Source of the DNA: Bacteroidia bacterium
Lineage (GTDB): Bacteria; Bacteroidota; Bacteroidia; Palsa-965
DNA: 64,000 nt
Direction of reading: 5' to 3'
Assembly (NCBI GenBank): GCA_038237845.1
Contig: JBBRYH010000003.1
Location: 80,483-144,482 of the forward strand
This document shows, piece by piece, positions 55,381 through 63,757 of the stretch. The notes beneath the pieces were generated by a model, which saw only the letters and a program-made list of their open reading frames with translations, ran no database searches and was not told where the DNA came from. A program made the position numbers and the translations under genes. The number at the start of each line of letters is the position of its first letter. Position 1 is the stretch's first letter.

Positions 55381-56691
55381 ATGCTTATTAAGTTGAAAAA
55401 GCTTTCCCTCCTATTTTTTGTATTTATTGGTCTTTCCTTAAGTCTTAGGGCTAATCCATTTCCATTAAATAGACATTTAAAAACACTTTTGGATAGTGGG
55501 GAATATTTTCAATTCAGACATGATTTTGAAGAGGAGATACCCGCTTCTAGCTATGCAGAAAAGTGGTTTTGGGAGCCCGAACATTTGTATTTCCTAGCCT
55601 GGGATAATTACCTTTTTAATAAATCAAAAACTTCAAATCATAATATTGAATCTTTATTAAGCGATTCGAAATTCACTTGTCCGGATTCGATTATTGCGGA
55701 GATGCTACAACTTCATTATCAGAATGATTTAAGGTTGTTTCAATACAAAACAGCGGATTCAATTTGCAACATTTTATTATTCCGGTTTCCATCTGTAATT
55801 GATCCGCAAGTGTTAGCTGGAATTAAAAACTCTTCGCAAATTACAGCTGCTTTAATTTCCGTTCCGCCACAGACCATTGAACGAAATGGTGAATTAGTTG
55901 TAAAATACAAAAGGGACATTGCGAATCTGATAAAGGTTCCGGTGACGATGAATAATAAGTCTGATGATTTTATTTTTGATACCGGTGCCAATTTCTCAAC
56001 AATCAGCGAATCAGAAGCTAAAAAAATGAATGTCCATATGCTGAATGCAACGTTCGGTGTTATGAGTTCATCAAAAGCATCTGTTTCCACAGGCTTAGGT
56101 GTTGCTGACAAATTAGAAATTGGAAATGTTATTTTCAGGAATGTTGTATTTCTAGTAATGCCTGATAAAGCATTAAAATTTTTAGGTGGGCTTTATAAAA
56201 TCAAAGGGATAATTGGCTTACCTGTTATTGCACAAATGGGCCAGATAGAAATAAGAAAAAATCACAACATAATTGGTACAACAGCTGTCATTGAAAATCA
56301 CATTTTAAATCTTGGTCTGGAAGGCAATACTCCTTTCGTTGCTGCAACATTTTTTGAGAAAGAACATATTTATATTTTTGATACTGGAGCTGCGGCTTCC
56401 GTTTTTGGAAAACGATTTAATGCTGCTTATGCCGAAAAACTTACTACCGCAAAGGATGGAACCGCGCATGTGGGAGGTGCAGGTGGCGTTCAAAAAGTGG
56501 TCACCAGAACTGCAAAAAACATTTCATATAATTTCGGAAAGGGAAATAGTGTTTTAAAGGTAATTTCAATTCAGTTAAATGGGGTTTCTGATGCGATAGG
56601 AAATTTTTATGGAATAATAGGAGAAGATGTTTTTATGCATTGGGAAGTGATGACAATAAATTTCGATTTAATGTTTGTGGAAGTTAGATAA
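55381..56691 (+). CDS. secreted retropepsin-like aspartic protease with two DTG active-site motifs in one chain
   Basis: 436 aa. Signal peptide. Two separate catalytic-type motifs, FIFDTGANFSTIS and IYIFDTGAAASVFG, each followed by GxxG-like flaps. This suggests a single-chain pseudo-dimer. Confidence 0.6.
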   Translation: MLIKLKKLSLLFFVFIGLSLSLRANPFPLNRHLKTLLDSGEYFQFRHDFEEEIPASSYAEKWFWEPEHLYFLAWDNYLFNKSKTSNHNIESLLSDSKFTCPDSIIAEMLQLHYQNDLRLFQYKTADSICNILLFRFPSVIDPQVLAGIKNSSQITAALISVPPQTIERNGELVVKYKRDIANLIKVPVTMNNKSDDFIFDTGANFSTISESEAKKMNVHMLNATFGVMSSSKASVSTGLGVADKLEIGNVIFRNVVFLVMPDKALKFLGGLYKIKGIIGLPVIAQMGQIEIRKNHNIIGTTAVIENHILNLGLEGNTPFVAATFFEKEHIYIFDTGAAASVFGKRFNAAYAEKLTTAKDGTAHVGGAGGVQKVVTRTAKNISYNFGKGNSVLKVISIQLNGVSDAIGNFYGIIGEDVFMHWEVMTINFDLMFVEVR

Positions 56692-56702
56692 ATTAAATTT
56701 TT

Positions 56703-57728
56703 ATGGAAATTGGTATTGATAGTTTTGCAGCCGTAAATTCTGGAACAAATGCAAGCGATTCGAGCAGTAGCGCCGAATCCATTTCACGTTTACTTGATCG
56801 AATAGAACACGCAGATAAATCAGGATTAGATGTATTTGGAATTGGTGAGCATCATCGCAAAGAGTTTTTGGATTCAGCAAATACATTAATATTAGCTGCG
56901 GCTGCGGCCAGAACAAAAAATATAATTCTGACAAGTGCAGTTACGGTTCTTAGCGCATCAGATCCGGTTCGCGTATTTCAAAATTTTGCAACGCTTGATT
57001 TAATTTCAAATGGTCGTGCAGAAATGGTTGTTGGTCGCGGATCATTTACAGAAGCCTTTCCATTATTTGGCTTAAGCTTGGACGACTATGACGAATTGTT
57101 CACTGAAAAGCTGGATCTCTTACTAAACATTCGAAAAAACGAAACCGTAAACTGGTCTGGTCAATTTAGAGCTTCTTTAAAAAATCAAGCAATTTATCCA
57201 CGTCCAGTTCAAAAAAATATTCCGATTTGGCTTGGCGTTGGCGGCACACCAGAATCATTTGCAAGAGCAGGTCAATTAGGTTTGCCATTAATGGTTGCAG
57301 TAATTGGAGGAGATACGCATCGCTTTCGACCCTTAGTTGATTTGTACAGAGAGGCTGGTAAACGAGCAGGTTTTGCTCCTGAACAATTAAAAGTTGGTTT
57401 GCATTCTCTTGGCTATGTCAGTACTTCAACTGAAGAGTCAATTGAAGAATACTATCCGGGTTATGCAGAAACATTCACAAGAATTGGCAAAGAACGTGGC
57501 TGGCCTCCCGTGACTAAAGAACGTTTTCTTGCACAAACTGGTCCACTTGGCGCGTTAGTTGTGGGTAATCCAGAAGAGGTAGCTGCAAAAATTCTGCGTC
57601 ATAGTGAAGCGTTGGGGGGAATCTCCCGTTTCTGTTTTCAAATGGACAATGCAGGACTTTCACATGAAAAACTGCTCCAATCTATTTCATTAATAAGTAA
57701 AGTGAAATTGATTGTAAACAAAAATTAA
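56703..57728 (+). CDS. LLM-class (luciferase-like) flavin-dependent oxidoreductase
   Basis: 341 aa. TIM-barrel LLM hallmarks (N-terminal MEIGIDSFA..., and the AAAAARTKNIILTSAVTVLSASDPVRVFQNFATLDLISNGRAEMVVGRG segment). Confidence 0.75.
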   Translation: MEIGIDSFAAVNSGTNASDSSSSAESISRLLDRIEHADKSGLDVFGIGEHHRKEFLDSANTLILAAAAARTKNIILTSAVTVLSASDPVRVFQNFATLDLISNGRAEMVVGRGSFTEAFPLFGLSLDDYDELFTEKLDLLLNIRKNETVNWSGQFRASLKNQAIYPRPVQKNIPIWLGVGGTPESFARAGQLGLPLMVAVIGGDTHRFRPLVDLYREAGKRAGFAPEQLKVGLHSLGYVSTSTEESIEEYYPGYAETFTRIGKERGWPPVTKERFLAQTGPLGALVVGNPEEVAAKILRHSEALGGISRFCFQMDNAGLSHEKLLQSISLISKVKLIVNKN

Positions 57729-57755
57729 AACATCACTTTAAAGCTTTTAAATATT

Positions 57756-58724
57756 TTGATTAGATTTTTTTTTCTTCATCTCTTTATTTTCGCAAGTCAA
57801 ATGGTATTTGCTCAAAATACTTTGACTGAAATTAAGGTGCGTAGTTCTAATCCCGGTCATTTAAAAATGTTTATTCATATTCCGAAGAATCACAGGGACA
57901 GTTTAAAACAAATGCCTTTAGTTGTAGCACTCCATGGCTGCACACAAAATGCAAATGAAATTGCCGTACAATCAGATTGGAATAAATTGGCAGATTATTA
58001 TGGATTTTATGTTCTCTATCCGCAACAAAATTTCCTAAACAACCCCAATGAATGTTTTGATTGGTTCAATAAAAATGACATTGAAAAAAATAAAGGCGAA
58101 GTTTATTCTATAAAACAAATGATTGATTTTGTAATAGACACTTTTTCTATTGATACCACCCGCATCTTTGCTTACGGATTATCCGCTGGCGCTGCTATGA
58201 GCGTTGCCTTGTTGGCAGATTATCCCTATTTGTTTAGTGCAGGTGCAATTCTAGCAGGAGGACCTTACATGGCTGCTACTAATCCTACAGCCGGTTTAGT
58301 ATCTATGACATCACCAAAAAACAAAACATCAAAACAATTAGGCGAAGTTGTATTAAAACAAAATCCTGATTACAAAGGAAAATATCCAAAGATCATTATT
58401 GTGCATGGAAAAAAAGATCCTGTGGTAAATATCAAAAATTCCTACCAATTAATTCAGCAATAGACTTATGTAAATCAAACAGACACCATTGCTGATTCTA
58501 CACTACATGCTTTTGCTAACCATCCTGACATTACAAAATATAGTTATACTAACAAATCAAATGCTGAAGTGGTCATTTTTTATGAAGTAGAAAATCTAGG
58601 TCATGCCTTAATGGTTGATCCAGGTGAAGAAATTACGCAAGGTGGAACGACTGGTATTTTTTCTGTCGACATGAATTTTTTTAGCACCTATTGGATAGCA
58701 AAAGATTTCGGTCTGATAAAATGA
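57756..58724 (+). pseudogene. PHB-depolymerase-family esterase (alpha/beta hydrolase) interrupted by an in-frame TAG at 58461-58463
   Basis: Signal peptide. LVVALHGCTQNANE...NPNECFDWF and the nucleophile elbow GLSAG. Asp-loop HGKKDPVV. Then TAG. The same frame stays open for 87 more codons to TGA at 58722-58724 and encodes ...ENLGHALMVDPGE, the expected catalytic-His motif. Confidence 0.55.
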
Positions 58725-60408: not shown

Positions 60409-60882
60409 TTATTCTTTTACTGCGATTACACTTATTTCGATGTGAGCACCTTTTGGAAGTGCTGCAACCTGAACAGTTGATCGTGCTGGAAAATTTCCTT
60501 CAACAAAAAAACTTCCGTAAATTGAATTAATGGTTTTAAAATCATTAATGTTTGTAAGGTAAATTGTTGTCGTTGCAATATCCTTCAAGTTTAAATGGGC
60601 ACTTTCCAGAATCGCCTTAATGTTTTCCATTGCCCATTTGGTTTCAGCTGCAATATCTGAAGTGTCTAACAAGCCTGTTTTTAAATTAATTCCAACCTGG
60701 CCCGAAACAAAATAACAATTCCCTTTTCGGACCGCTTGTGAATACGGACCAATTGGATTGGGTGCATTTGTAGTAGAAATTATTTCCGGATTTATTTTTT
60801 GATCCTTTCCAGGACGAAAGTTCAAGTAAAGTAAAAATCCAATTGCAATGATTGCGAACGCGTAAAAAACGGTGTGCTTCAT
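60409..60882 (-). CDS. ridA: RidA (YjgF/TdcF) family enamine/imine deaminase with N-terminal membrane anchor
   Basis: 157 aa. N-terminal TM helix (VFYAFAIIAIGFLLYL), then the RidA fold with PIGPYSQAV, the GQ.G..L.TG. region and the C-terminal FPARSTVQVAALP...IEI. Confidence 0.8.
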   Translation of the reverse strand: MKHTVFYAFAIIAIGFLLYLNFRPGKDQKINPEIISTTNAPNPIGPYSQAVRKGNCYFVSGQVGINLKTGLLDTSDIAAETKWAMENIKAILESAHLNLKDIATTTIYLTNINDFKTINSIYGSFFVEGNFPARSTVQVAALPKGAHIEISVIAVKE

Positions 60883-60931
60883 AAGCTAAGCTAAGCAATA
60901 CTAAATTGTAATATTTAAAATAACGTATTGA

Positions 60932-62233
60932 CTATTTTGGTGCAGCTAATTCATTGATCATTTCTTTGATTGCAAGAACAAGCAAATCAAGATCTGCAAT
61001 ACTTGTATATACATTTGGTGCAATTCTAGCACCATGAATATTTTCCCAATTTATAGCAACACAATGAATGCGATATTTCTCCATTAATTTTGCTTCAATC
61101 TCTTCCGGTTTTAATCCTTCGATAGAAATATTAGCAATTGTTCCGCAGAAAGCAGGATTTTTTGGGGTATTAATTTTTACACCAGGAAGTTTTTCAACTT
61201 TTTCGGTCCAGTAATTTTTCAAATATCGAAGACGAGCTTCTTTTCTCTTAACGCCGATTAATAAATGAAAATCAATTGCAGAACTTATTGCCATCTCAGA
61301 AGCAAATGATCTGGTTCCTAATGATTCAAATTTTCGAATATCACCACTTTCAGGATCTGCGCTAGAGAGCAAAGGCAAAATCCCTTTTATTTTTTCTTTT
61401 TTGATCCAAAGCATTCCGCTTCCAAAAGGAGCACAAAGCCATTTATGCAAACTTGTTGCCCAATAGTCACAGCCTAAATCACCAATTTTATAATCAATCA
61501 AACCAAACGTGTGCGCCGAATCACAAATTACTTCAATGTTTTTTTTGTGTGCTTCATCTGCAATCATTTTTACAGGTAATACTTGACCTACCCAATTAAT
61601 CATGTGTGTTACATGAACCACTTTTGTTTTATCTGTAAATAAAGAAGTGTAAGCTTTTGTTAAGGCAACTGCATCTTCAGATGGCAATACGTGATTAATC
61701 CAAACCAGTTTGATTCCATCTCTTTTTTCCCTCTGCTTCCATGCATTCAACATGTTCGGATAATCCTGTTTGGAAACAATTACTTCATCTCCAGCTTTCA
61801 GATTTAATCCGAAAATAATTGTATTTAGTCCTTCTGTTGCATTACGATTTATAGCAACTTCATCAGGTGAAACTCCTGCAAGATCAGCAAGTCTCCGTCT
61901 TAACGGTTCACGCCCACGATCCAAATCACGCCACATATAAAAAGAAGGCGCTTCATTACAATATTGATAAAAACGAATATGCGTATCCTGAACAGGCTTT
62001 GGTTGTGGACTTACACCACCATTATTTAAATTGATCATGGTGGTATTTACAGTGTACTGTTCACGCACCCATGCCCAGAAATCATCATCAGAAGCGGTTA
62101 CTTCGGGAGGCAATAAATTAACACGTTCAAGTTGCTCTTTTCCCCTTGCGAAAATCGGATTGAATACTGCTGGGACAGCAAATGCACCTGCCGTAAAACC
62201 AAGTTGACGAAGAAAATTTCGACGATCTGACAT
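60932..62233 (-). CDS. class-V aminotransferase-fold PLP-dependent enzyme with twin-arginine (Tat) signal peptide
   Basis: 433 aa. Tat motif SDRRNFLRQLGFTAGAFAVPAVF. PLP-Lys motif ATSLHKWLCAPFGSGML, typical of class-V enzymes (cysteine desulfurase / C-S lyase / epimerase-like). Confidence 0.75.
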   Translation of the reverse strand: MSDRRNFLRQLGFTAGAFAVPAVFNPIFARGKEQLERVNLLPPEVTASDDDFWAWVREQYTVNTTMINLNNGGVSPQPKPVQDTHIRFYQYCNEAPSFYMWRDLDRGREPLRRRLADLAGVSPDEVAINRNATEGLNTIIFGLNLKAGDEVIVSKQDYPNMLNAWKQREKRDGIKLVWINHVLPSEDAVALTKAYTSLFTDKTKVVHVTHMINWVGQVLPVKMIADEAHKKNIEVICDSAHTFGLIDYKIGDLGCDYWATSLHKWLCAPFGSGMLWIKKEKIKGILPLLSSADPESGDIRKFESLGTRSFASEMAISSAIDFHLLIGVKRKEARLRYLKNYWTEKVEKLPGVKINTPKNPAFCGTIANISIEGLKPEEIEAKLMEKYRIHCVAINWENIHGARIAPNVYTSIADLDLLVLAIKEMINELAAPK

Positions 62234-62278
62234 TGGGAGATGTTTTTAAAAAATCAGATAAATAAAATAATACAACTA

Positions 62279-63124
62279 TTACTCAATGACTACTTTTCCT
62301 TTTCCAAGTAATTCGCCATCATTCGTAAGACTGTAAAAATAAACGCCACCAGAAAGTGTTGATGAATTGATAACTGCTTTATCACCTTCTACCATGTCAT
62401 TCATCACTTCGCGACCTGCCACATCAACTAAAACGAAATTTGTTTTATTGGTTTTGTTAGAAGCGTTAAACGAAACTGTAAAATTATCAATTGCAGGATT
62501 TGGAAAAAGCGAAACTTCTTCCATTGAAGCATGGTTAGCAATTGCAGTTGGAGATGTTGTCAAAAGATTAGTGTGCGTCCAATCATGAACACCGTCATTA
62601 CAAAGCCAAGAATAGGTACTGACATGCAATCCTTCACCAGGCCACGGATTCATATAGTTTACGTTATTCCCGGAGATTCCACTACCAACAATAAAATGAC
62701 CACCACCACTATACCAACCCCAACGAATAACATAAGGGCGATTACCAGCACACTCCGTTGTTATTTCAGTAGTTGTTAATGAAGCATATGTTCCATAATT
62801 CTGGATATTTGAAAAATGGATAAGAATATCCTGAATGCTTCCTGGATAACCAAAATTATAATTCCAATAATTACATCCCTGATTCGGATCAACACAACAA
62901 TTTACAGATCCGAAATTATTCCAAGTAATAACTGTTCTTGCATAATCATCAATATCACATTGCTGTTGATTATTTCCGTAGTAATCAAGAATACATTTGC
63001 TGACACCTGCCCAGCACCATTGATTTTGCTCTTGAACTACCAATCCGACATTTAGAATCTGCGCTTTAGTAATTCCAGAGAATACAAGCGAAAAAATAAG
63101 AGGTAAAAGTATTTTTCTTTTCAT
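62279..63124 (-). CDS. secreted peptidase-C39-like (papain-fold) domain protein with T9SS type-A C-terminal domain
   Basis: 281 aa. Signal peptide. The Q..WCWAGVSKCILDYYG (Cys) and GGGHFIVGSG (His) arrangement resembles C39-like cysteine peptidase domains. C-terminal Por_Secre_tail (...LSGGVYFYSLTNDGELLGKGKVVIE). Confidence 0.5.
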   Translation of the reverse strand: MKRKILLPLIFSLVFSGITKAQILNVGLVVQEQNQWCWAGVSKCILDYYGNNQQQCDIDDYARTVITWNNFGSVNCCVDPNQGCNYWNYNFGYPGSIQDILIHFSNIQNYGTYASLTTTEITTECAGNRPYVIRWGWYSGGGHFIVGSGISGNNVNYMNPWPGEGLHVSTYSWLCNDGVHDWTHTNLLTTSPTAIANHASMEEVSLFPNPAIDNFTVSFNASNKTNKTNFVLVDVAGREVMNDMVEGDKAVINSSTLSGGVYFYSLTNDGELLGKGKVVIE

Positions 63125-63130
63125 CGCAGA

Positions 63131-63757
63131 TTAGTTTTTAGAAGGTGACGCTAATTTTATTTTAACCTGTTCCAATACTTGTGCTTGGGTCATTACTTTA
63201 CCGTTCAATGAAGGCATTGAGGTCAGGGCAGAATTCATTGGATAATAATTTCCTTCGGCTAGTGTTTTTCCAGCTTCAACAAAAGCTACAAAATCACAAG
63301 CCAGCGGATAAATTCTAAGAATATATTTTTCATTCGCTGTTTGACCAAATGAATTGGATTGTAATTCTTTAGAAAGACCTACAGCTCCAATGTCAACAAC
63401 ATTCAAAGAGGAATCATTACCGAATACAGTTAGCAATAAACGATTTTCGTTATTGACAACAACAGGAACTCTCCATTCGTTTTGAAGAAGAATATAATCT
63501 TTCGCTCCAAGTTTCGCATCGTTATAAAACTCAGTTGTCAGGGAAATTGTTCTGTAAACTTCTCCGGTAGTTGCTGAAGAAAACTCGTCGCGACTTGCAA
63601 AGCCAAAACCTTCTTCATTGCCAACAGGAATTAATGCAAGAGATTTTTGTAGTTGCTCAATAGCAACATTTTTTACTTGCGCTGACGGAATATTCAAAGT
63701 TTTGAAACTTATACCCGAAATAGCAAGTAAGATTAGTAGTGTAGAGATTTTTCGCAT
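63131..63757 (-). CDS. hypothetical secreted protein
   Basis: 208 aa. Signal peptide MRKISTLLILLAISGISF. No recognisable domain. 6-nt gap to the C39-like gene downstream. Confidence 0.4.
   Translation of the reverse strand: MRKISTLLILLAISGISFKTLNIPSAQVKNVAIEQLQKSLALIPVGNEEGFGFASRDEFSSATTGEVYRTISLTTEFYNDAKLGAKDYILLQNEWRVPVVVNNENRLLLTVFGNDSSLNVVDIGAVGLSKELQSNSFGQTANEKYILRIYPLACDFVAFVEAGKTLAEGNYYPMNSALTSMPSLNGKVMTQAQVLEQVKIKLASPSKN

Follow-up and report, generated by a model that had tools for sequence, protein, structure and literature searches.

RidA is the textbook case of metabolite-damage pre-emption. As far as we know, work on it has dealt with its place beside enzymes that release 2-aminoacrylate, in cytosol, mitochondria and plastids, and the characterised bacterial pairs of RidA with a pyridoxal 5'-phosphate (PLP) enzyme that we know of are cytoplasmic. 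Here we describe a locus in a 64,000-nucleotide stretch of DNA from a Bacteroidia bacterium (GenBank assembly GCA_038237845.1, contig JBBRYH010000003.1, positions 80,483 to 144,482 of the forward strand; the whole stretch is called the window below), in which the gene of a class-V PLP-dependent enzyme is followed by a RidA gene and both products begin with an export-type N-terminus. A survey of 2015 (Niehaus et al., PMC4433059) already noted that RidA clusters with PLP enzymes that generate 2-aminoacrylate, 'cysteine desulfurase' genes included. The text of that survey nowhere mentions signal, periplasm or membrane.

In the described RidA/PLP pairs (IlvA/TdcB-TdcF, CdsH and the cysteine desulfurase/desulfhydrase clusters), as in the window, a canonical RidA stands beside a PLP enzyme with such an annotation, and its expected role is enamine/imine hydrolysis. 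What sets the window apart is that export signals are carried by both partners, a twin-arginine translocation (Tat) signal by the enzyme and an anchor, lipobox or signal peptide by RidA. PvdN (and PtaA) of fluorescent Pseudomonas, which tailor pyoverdine, resemble the window enzyme in the class-V fold of PvdN, in a twin-arginine signal that can be aligned, and in cofactor loading before Tat transport, which the window enzyme would share. They differ in sequence (~21% identity to PvdN), in the EH motif of PvdN where the window enzyme has D-Y-P-N, in context, as the window has no pyoverdine or nonribosomal peptide synthetase (NRPS) surroundings, and in phylum (Pseudomonadota versus Bacteroidota). 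We know of no RidA partner of PvdN. Experimentally, PvdN was found to be Tat-dependent and to need bound PLP for its transport, and PtaA is another enzyme of this kind (PMC6206403).

The L-cystine C-S lyase C-DES of Synechocystis (1elq/1n2t), together with EgtE/Egt2, has like the window enzyme a SufS-like class-V fold without the persulfide cysteine (Foldseek TMt 0.79), and lyases of the C-DES type perform beta-elimination to 2-aminoacrylate/pyruvate, the kind of product that RidA handles. However, C-DES is only ~20% identical, is cytoplasmic and has no Tat signal, and the likeness of the window enzyme to a cystine lyase is one of fold only. Type II desulfurases of the SufS/CsdA kind share the PLP lysine, the overall fold (template-modelling (TM) score ~0.74) and a C-terminal Arg near which R403 of the window enzyme falls, whereas the window enzyme has a variable residue (T, C, S, A or V) in the catalytic-Cys column, scores 134 against a required 475 bits, lies outside any SufE/SufU/SufBCD context and appears to be exported. 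These comparisons suggest that a Tat-exported class-V PLP enzyme (PvdN) and RidA beside PLP enzymes are already known, and that the known protective pairing in an extracytoplasmic compartment and an uncharacterised enzyme family are new. Neither a periplasmic RidA nor a Tat-exported class-V enzyme from Bacteroidota turned up in our literature searches, in agreement with a preliminary description of the window, made from its sequence, which knew of no characterised extracytoplasmic PLP-lyase/RidA pair.

The open reading frame listing showed four successive minus-strand frames at 60409-63757, with exactly the limits given in that description, and an export-type N-terminus could be read on each of the four products, as it had claimed. 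Judged from gene order across loci, the four genes are two adjacent, independent two-gene units rather than one module: unit 1 consists of the PLP enzyme gene (62233-60932) and then RidA (60882-60409), and unit 2 of a hypothetical gene and a peptidase gene. We propose that unit 1 would be a periplasmic PLP enzyme/RidA pair, probably working by beta-elimination with RidA quenching the product, and we give this reading about an even chance. The features of unit 1 are as follows.

60932..62233, minus strand: class-V (SufS/PvdN/C-DES-fold) PLP-dependent enzyme, putatively Tat-exported, 433 aa.
62147..62233, minus strand: predicted twin-arginine signal peptide of this enzyme, residues 1-29, MSDRRNFLRQLGFTAGAFAVPAVFNPIFA followed by RG; called from motif conservation, cleavage site putative.
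61442..61444, minus strand: codon of Lys264, the predicted PLP Schiff-base lysine (SLHKW).
60409..60882, minus strand: 157-aa RidA (enamine/imine deaminase), extended at its N-terminus by an export/anchor segment.
60823..60873, minus strand: hydrophobic stretch at RidA residues 4-20, TVFYAFAIIAIGFLLYL, taken as a probable uncleaved signal anchor with a putative orientation.

The PLP enzyme begins with DRRNFLR and then the h-region LGFTAGAFAVPAVF. An RR-x-F-type motif was found in 116 of the 120 best homologs (63-100% identity), the remaining four being N-terminally truncated gene calls, and in a phmmer alignment the window's signal lay over PvdN's own Tat signal MNDRRTFLKQAG. Across ~200 orthologs, 110 of the 433 positions were at least 97% invariant, among them R4, R5 and F7 of the signal as well as K264 and R403. 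These results bear out the clear twin-arginine signal of the preliminary description, and they speak against a true start further downstream, because the motif is conserved at the N-terminus of the orthologs. By sequence, then, the Tat signal is conserved and correctly placed, the export signals of the locus are supported, and we infer that export of the enzyme depends on Tat. A regex search, which was narrow, detected no TatA motif and no further Tat-signal protein in the window. In one groundwater Bacteroidetes metagenome-assembled genome, tatC (L069:6400-7242, plus strand; PF00902, E 4.7e-62) lies directly downstream of the PLP ortholog, with no RidA after it.

Membership of the class-V family was likewise supported. 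The enzyme matched Aminotran_5 (PF00266 in Pfam, E 1.4e-40) with 139.8 bits against a gathering threshold of 21.5, and its top NCBIfam matches were PvdN (NF051467; 142.6 bits, cutoff 650) and SufS (TIGR01979; 133.8 bits, cutoff 475.1). Thus the assignment by hidden Markov models, which the preliminary description had called for, upheld the class-V fold and placed the enzyme in neither the SufS nor the PvdN subfamily. The nearest solved structure in a single-sequence phmmer search was PvdN (5i90, E 2.4e-30), aligned end to end over residues 1-419, and the best matches in a profile-level search of the PDB were of the SufS/CsdA type (E 1e-37). An AlphaFold2 (AF2) model with a mean predicted local distance difference test (pLDDT) score of 78.6 was compared with the PDB by Foldseek, giving TM 0.74 for SufS/Nfs2, TMt 0.81 for PvdN and TMt 0.79 for C-DES at ~20% identity each, and in that search the three were not separable as the nearest fold. 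The modelled fold therefore does not settle the reaction, as SufS, PvdN and C-DES are about equally alike.

At the active site, a lysine was present at position 264 in 203 of 203 aligned sequences and aligned with the HK lysine of SufS and PvdN. The column of the SufS persulfide cysteine (C391 in the window enzyme) read T in 127, C in 29, S in 22, A in 17 and V in 6 of the 203 sequences. Because the SufS catalytic-Cys position varies in this way, the family cannot be a cysteine desulfurase, and this identity was rejected, also on the 133.8 bits against the SufS cutoff. SufE, SufU and SufBCD were absent from the context of the PLP gene. In HMMER alignments, the EHH of SufS and the EH of PvdN aligned with D157-Y158-P159-N160, which is invariant in the family. 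In SufS, one of these His residues stacks on PLP. Invariant Arg403 aligned near the conserved C-terminal Arg of SufS, and from general knowledge of class-V enzymes we take it to be the carboxylate-binding residue.

A genome scan for relatives of the PLP enzyme returned at least 598 confirmed relatives, of which 80 loci, at 57-85% identity, were kept for analysis. The family, at 57-88% identity, spans Chitinophagales, Cytophagales/Spirosomataceae, Sphingobacteriales, Saprospirales and Flavobacteriales. Its members are currently annotated as 'selenocysteine lyase/cysteine desulfurase' or 'isopenicillin-N epimerase', and these are mis-annotations. A second class-V enzyme with a Tat signal (MDRRSFIRN…) was observed in locus L091 (810-2117, minus strand), scoring 444 bits on the PvdN model (cutoff 650); it lies ~1.6 kb from, and divergent to, a pair of Tat-signal PLP enzyme and lipoprotein RidA (L091:3691-5447). 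The presence of this PvdN-like paralog argues for the family of the window as a second, separate lineage of class-V enzymes exported by Tat, with at least two such lineages in Bacteroidota.

To examine the pairing of the two genes, all four proteins of the window were compared by tblastn with 88 loci. Of the 80 genome loci, 16 had RidA directly 3' of the PLP gene, as did the metagenomic L001, L002-L004 and L008; in the remaining loci of the table it was found nowhere within 5 kb of the PLP gene. Nineteen linked loci were analysed in detail, and L091 and L096 are two further linked loci. L053 was not counted as linked, its RidA lying ~4 kb upstream on the opposite strand without an export-type N-terminus. 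By neighbour clustering RidA was the commonest neighbour of the PLP gene (20 loci, L053 included), followed by a lineage-specific HI0933-like gene (17 loci). The distance from PLP stop to RidA start ranged from -11 to +49 nt, with overlapping reading frames in six loci, and the flanks of the pair varied over at least 10 different contexts. That the pair persists while the flanking genes differ argues for selection on the pair itself. The results supported the two genes as a recurrent, tightly spaced, conserved pair by gene order, and the association claimed in the preliminary description, with RidA adjacent downstream in 19 + 2 loci, held. The synteny comparison went only partly its way, as the PLP gene and RidA were co-conserved and the trio with the peptidase gene and the four-gene set were not.

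Other neighbours of the PLP gene were observed in particular lineages. In one sublineage (L058, L065, L066, L082 and L067), an AA_permease_2 gene (APC family, E 1.5e-59) lies on the same strand ~1.4-4.9 kb upstream, in a stretch that also encodes a short-chain dehydrogenase/reductase (SDR)-like protein with an N-terminal GATSGIG motif and a signal-peptide protein without assigned function. In L002 and L010 the PLP gene is preceded by TonB-receptor-like and DUF4249 proteins. These neighbours may hint at the substrate or may be mere synteny. In L005, L014-L016, L020 and related Chitinophagaceae, which have no linked RidA, genes for SecY, Map, an M20 peptidase (~510 aa, with a signal peptide) and an HI0933-like flavoprotein precede the PLP gene; this places an exported peptidase near the PLP enzyme in another lineage, of another family than the peptidase of unit 2.

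The RidA of the window matched Ribonuc_L-PSP (E 8e-38, domain from residue 33) and TIGR00004 (149.9 bits, cutoff 106.25). Its residues 34-156 aligned with E. coli YjgF/RidA (1qu9), with conservation of the FPARS arginine (R134, equivalent to Arg105), the IEI glutamate and also the GPYSQ tyrosine. By these residues the protein is a canonical RidA, for which deaminase activity is predicted. Nothing in the RidAs of solved structure corresponds to residues 1-32, MKH-TVFYAFAIIAIGFLLYL-NFRPGKDQKINPEII, and the flank of the hydrophobic segment reads NFRPGK. The same kind of extension, with a hydrophobic stretch of 17-21 residues, was present in 104 of 117 close RidA homologs. Between the window and L093, codons 1-32 were identical in 12 cases, changed synonymously in 11 and non-synonymously in 9, compared with 40, 48 and 37 in the core. 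Because this substitution pattern resembles that of the core, the extension is translated and constrained by purifying selection. A downstream start (TTG, codon 20) giving a cytoplasmic main product was rejected on the same pattern and on conservation of the extension at the protein level.

A RidA homolog search over 1.84 billion cluster representatives placed this extension in a wider setting, as RidAs with signals proved common among the sequences close to the query. Hydrophobic N-terminal extensions, including lipoboxes and one Tat-like motif, were carried by 19 of 58 single-domain RidA matches. The Tat-like N-terminus (…KKISRRYLLKAAAGAAVAAPYF…) belongs to P0452, a single-domain representative, from which Tat export of some RidAs themselves may be suspected. 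Among the best 150 representatives, 91 of the 149 new sequences (P0361-P0509) were at least 215 aa long with two or three tandem RidA domains (one had five); most of the tandem proteins are ~400 aa with three domains, and a signal peptide or lipobox opens many of them (P0362, P0364, P0369 and P0377 are examples). From their domain layout, the triple-RidA chains could be single-chain pseudo-trimers.

We suggest the following course for unit 1. The PLP enzyme would fold and bind PLP on Lys264 in the cytoplasm and leave via Tat, like its distant relative PvdN. Its periplasmic substrate would probably be an alpha-amino acid or an amino-acid moiety, in keeping with the invariant Arg403. For an enzyme without a persulfide-accepting cysteine, the likeliest chemistry would be alpha,beta-elimination of the C-DES/C-S-lyase type, releasing 2-aminoacrylate or a related enamine/imine. 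An uncleaved signal anchor would tether RidA to the periplasmic side of the inner membrane, and in other lineages RidA would be a lipoprotein or a soluble periplasmic protein. It would hydrolyse the intermediate to a 2-oxoacid and ammonia (2-aminoacrylate/2-iminopropanoate to pyruvate). Assuming that exported PLP is hard to re-load in the periplasm and that 2-aminoacrylate damage is irreversible, a dedicated RidA would be valuable. Unit 2 would be functionally independent of these steps.

Several points weigh against such a periplasmic eliminating pair, and they concern its chemistry, its linkage and the side of the membrane on which RidA lies. As for the chemistry, fold and sequence as compared here cannot tell a lyase apart from an epimerase, a transaminase or an oxidative decarboxylase like PvdN. 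The periplasm is also without other obvious PLP targets, and the need to quench 2-aminoacrylate there is an argument and not an observation. Among the alternatives, PvdN-like chemistry survives best, that is, O2-dependent oxidative decarboxylation/deamination, or PtaA-like transamination, of an amino-acid-bearing metabolite in the periplasm, for instance a siderophore or other secondary metabolite, with RidA hydrolysing the released imine. PvdN is both the best NCBIfam match and the closest solved sequence, a PvdN-like paralog with its own Tat signal lies beside the pair in L091, and the known Tat-exported PLP enzymes are PvdN and PtaA (PMC6206403). Rid proteins are also reported to be imine deaminases of broad activity (PMC5619798). 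However, the score of 142 bits is far below the PvdN equivalog cutoff, the EHH of SufS and EH of PvdN align with the invariant D157-Y158-P159-N160, and siderophore or NRPS genes were found in none of the ~90 loci inspected. Pyoverdine biosynthesis genes (pvdMNO) were absent from the window end, from L001 and from the ~90 related loci. Conservation at 57-88% identity over several Bacteroidota orders would also fit a housekeeping role better than lineage-specific tailoring. We consider PvdN-like chemistry unlikely. Identity of the enzyme as a PvdN ortholog was rejected outright, given its score on the PvdN model, the absent pyoverdine context and the closer PvdN-like paralog in L091.

As for the linkage, ~59 of 79 assessable orthologous loci had no RidA within 5 kb, the unlinked clades being Chitinophagaceae, Spirosomataceae and Saprospirales (about three quarters of loci). 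In a neighbour-joining tree of the PLP enzymes, the linked loci formed one broad contiguous group with few losses (L067, L076, L034, L021 and L069), so that vertical inheritance adds to the count of linked loci. A comparison of RidA-linked and unlinked PLP orthologs gave no specificity-determining residue except K/R231, and no active-site differences. This result indicated that both groups probably share one chemistry and that RidA is an accessory, the gene of which may lie elsewhere or be dispensable. Such observations would suit a neighbourhood without shared chemistry, in which co-transcription is historical, RidA serves other periplasmic imines or has a chaperone role, and the PLP enzyme acts independently. 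Most orthologous loci lack an adjacent RidA and their enzymes show no compensating differences, the linkage stays within one broad clade, exported-type RidAs occur unlinked to this PLP family in L089 and L094, and there are many signal-bearing RidA clusters. On the other hand, the pair was kept through its many flank contexts with frames overlapping or nearly abutting, RidA is the single most frequent neighbour, and RidA is known to cluster with PLP enzymes that form 2-aminoacrylate, 'cysteine desulfurase' genes among them (PMC4433059). A merely historical neighbourhood is in our view distinctly unlikely.

As for the side of the membrane, the window RidA has one K/R before its hydrophobic segment (MKH) and three in the nine residues after it (NFRPGKDQK). 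Among the RidA homologs the mean net charge was +1.2 on the N-terminal and +1.0 on the C-terminal flank, so that the positive-inside rule alone is ambiguous, and a strict positive-inside reading of the sequence would allow an N-out/C-in, cytoplasmic RidA in the window's lineage. Anchored in this manner, with the catalytic domain in the cytoplasm, RidA would leave the pair not extracytoplasmic there. The same distribution, the NFFRNKK or NFSKKK behind the segment in many close homologs and the lack of an evident signal peptidase I (SPase I) site in the window RidA all favour this arrangement. Against it, a Lys at position 2-3 in all close homologs resembles the n-region of signal peptides, and the hydrophobic segment was preceded by Lys or Arg in 19 of 19 linked RidAs. 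Lipoboxes were found on P0224 (MKPIFFILIVTVLFAC/QHK, the slash marking the putative cleavage point), which begins 2 nt after the Tat-signal PLP ortholog of L091, and on P0230 (...VLSGC/GTKK), which overlaps a 58%-identical PLP ortholog in L096. Cleavable signals of the SPase I type were read in L057 (VVAFA/DK) and L070 (NIFS/QT), and the linked RidAs of L048 and L055 have acidic C-flanks. These linked orthologs, with lipoprotein signals, cleavable signals or acidic C-flanks, are compatible with export only, and a switch of compartment between orthologs at the same operon position would be unparsimonious. We regard a cytoplasmic RidA in the window's lineage as quite improbable. The clear export signals on orthologs at this operon position lead us to infer that the RidA domain of the window is periplasmic and tethered by its signal anchor, an orientation that its own flanks leave somewhat ambiguous. 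The single transmembrane anchor of the preliminary description was thus retained as a conserved hydrophobic export/anchor segment, with an orientation that the K/R distribution does not settle.

Unit 2 comprises the remaining two genes.

62279..63124, minus strand: predicted secreted C39-like (papain-fold) cysteine peptidase with a type IX secretion system (T9SS) type-A C-terminal sorting domain, 281 aa.
62285..62509, minus strand: predicted T9SS type-A sorting domain of the peptidase, residues 206-280; Por_Secre_tail (PF18962) E 2.6e-11, TIGR04183 43 bits against a cutoff of 23.
63131..63757, minus strand: hypothetical protein with a signal-peptide-like N-terminus, 208 aa.

The peptidase gave a borderline Peptidase_C70 match (20.0 bits, threshold 19, no stretch reaching significance by itself) and a weak C39_2 match. 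Invariant in its family, which homolog searches found widespread across Bacteroidota, are W36-C37-W38, G140-G-G-H143-F144, P160-W161 and the cysteines C56, C76, C77 and C84, and N159 is conserved in at least 90%. Its AF2 model, of moderate pLDDT (65.9), matched the C39 domain of ComA (TMt 0.67-0.69) and that of PCAT1 (0.62) in Foldseek. The model and the conserved Cys and His support a papain-like, C39-like fold. The sorting domain also matched translocon-bound T9SS C-terminal domains at the profile level (8glk_D, E 2.9e-10) and by Foldseek (TMt 0.80). The C39-like peptidase with a T9SS sorting domain of the preliminary description was in this way supported. It shares the papain-like fold and conserved Cys/His with the C39 domains of ComA and PCAT1 and with C70 AvrRpt2, and carries its C-terminal domain as T9SS type-A cargo; unlike ComA and PCAT1 it is a stand-alone enzyme without fusion to an ATP-binding cassette (ABC) exporter, has four extra invariant cysteines and has a conserved, predicted periplasmic partner. 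Ordinary signal-peptide-like N-termini were read on the peptidase (MKRKILLPLIFSLVFSGITKA/Q, MKRK...TKA/Q) and on the hypothetical protein (MRK...IPSA/Q). No Pfam or NCBIfam match was obtained for the latter, for which a role as inhibitor, chaperone or substrate of its partner is conceivable.

In Flavobacterium enshiense (L092:4420-5831), a homolog of the hypothetical gene (41% identity, E 8e-26) ends 3 nt before one of the peptidase gene, and neither a PLP enzyme gene nor RidA was found near this pair. By gene order the two genes form a conserved two-gene unit with a gap of 3-6 nt. Since this pair stands alone in Flavobacterium enshiense and adjoins PLP orthologs only in the window's lineage, the two units are independent, a conclusion that the comparison of loci supported. 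Next to a PLP ortholog the peptidase and hypothetical genes were seen in just two other loci, L012 and L093, both of that lineage. The full four-gene order is retained in L093, with a peptidase-PLP gap of ~260 nt; in L012 the order hypothetical-peptidase-PLP is retained, and the contig stops within the PLP gene, leaving RidA beyond view. Additional contigs shared by homologs of several of the proteins hint at a few more close relatives with the same arrangement. Genes for DHDPS, a T9SS protein and CoaE lie upstream both in L093 and in L001, the contig of the window, and because these are shared too, the four-gene order in L093 and L012 is attributed to general lineage synteny. On gene order, the units share ancestry of position and not a pathway.

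A single four-gene pathway, in which the secreted peptidase releases peptides or amino acids for the PLP lyase as the preliminary description had proposed, is highly improbable: for it speak the common strand, the gaps of 49 nt (RidA/PLP), 45 nt (PLP/peptidase) and 6 nt (peptidase/hypothetical), the lack of a terminator-like hairpin in these gaps and the order kept in L093, in part in L012 and possibly in the other close relatives, but the shared upstream genes point to lineage synteny, the peptidase-PLP gap widens in L093, a peptidase or hypothetical homolog was found by tblastn in 0 of 18 other RidA-linked loci, and the hypothetical-peptidase pair occurs without PLP enzyme and RidA in Flavobacterium enshiense. 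The four-gene module was rejected on this synteny. A scan for sigma-70 promoters and terminators gave counts at or below shuffle expectation, with sigma-70 models that do not cover Bacteroidota promoters.

In L001 (Logan SRR19962011), the PLP enzyme, RidA and hypothetical protein were identical to those of the window, and the peptidase (L001:9110-9952) differed by 1 residue (99.6% identity), which indicates that the window comes from a very close, non-identical assembly or strain. Elsewhere in the window, the product of 55381-56691 (plus strand) is 436 aa long, begins with a hydrophobic, signal-peptide-like stretch and contains a retropepsin-like Asp_protease_2 domain (E 5.6e-17). The stretch 56703-58463 (plus strand) encodes a luciferase-like monooxygenase (E 2.7e-53) and then a polyhydroxybutyrate (PHB)-depolymerase-type esterase with a hydrophobic N-terminus (E 1.2e-26), the frame of which may be shorter than the full family length.

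If the proposed periplasmic pair is real, the RidA damage-control paradigm would extend to the bacterial periplasm. Very few PLP enzymes are known to leave by Tat, and beside PvdN and PtaA this one would stand for a second functional class among them; its periplasmic reaction on amino acids would be an uncharacterised one, highly conserved across Bacteroidota orders. More tentatively, and as a possibility we would not call probable, there may be an unrecognised extracytoplasmic branch of RidA (anchored, lipoprotein, Sec-exported, possibly Tat-exported, and triple-RidA) that is widespread in environmental bacteria and that in a large Bacteroidota clade serves a class-V PLP lyase exported by Tat as its dedicated partner, guarding a cofactor for which there may be no replacement outside the cytoplasm. 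Such a branch would point to an undescribed catabolic step for periplasmic amino acids, for example cystine or S-conjugates.

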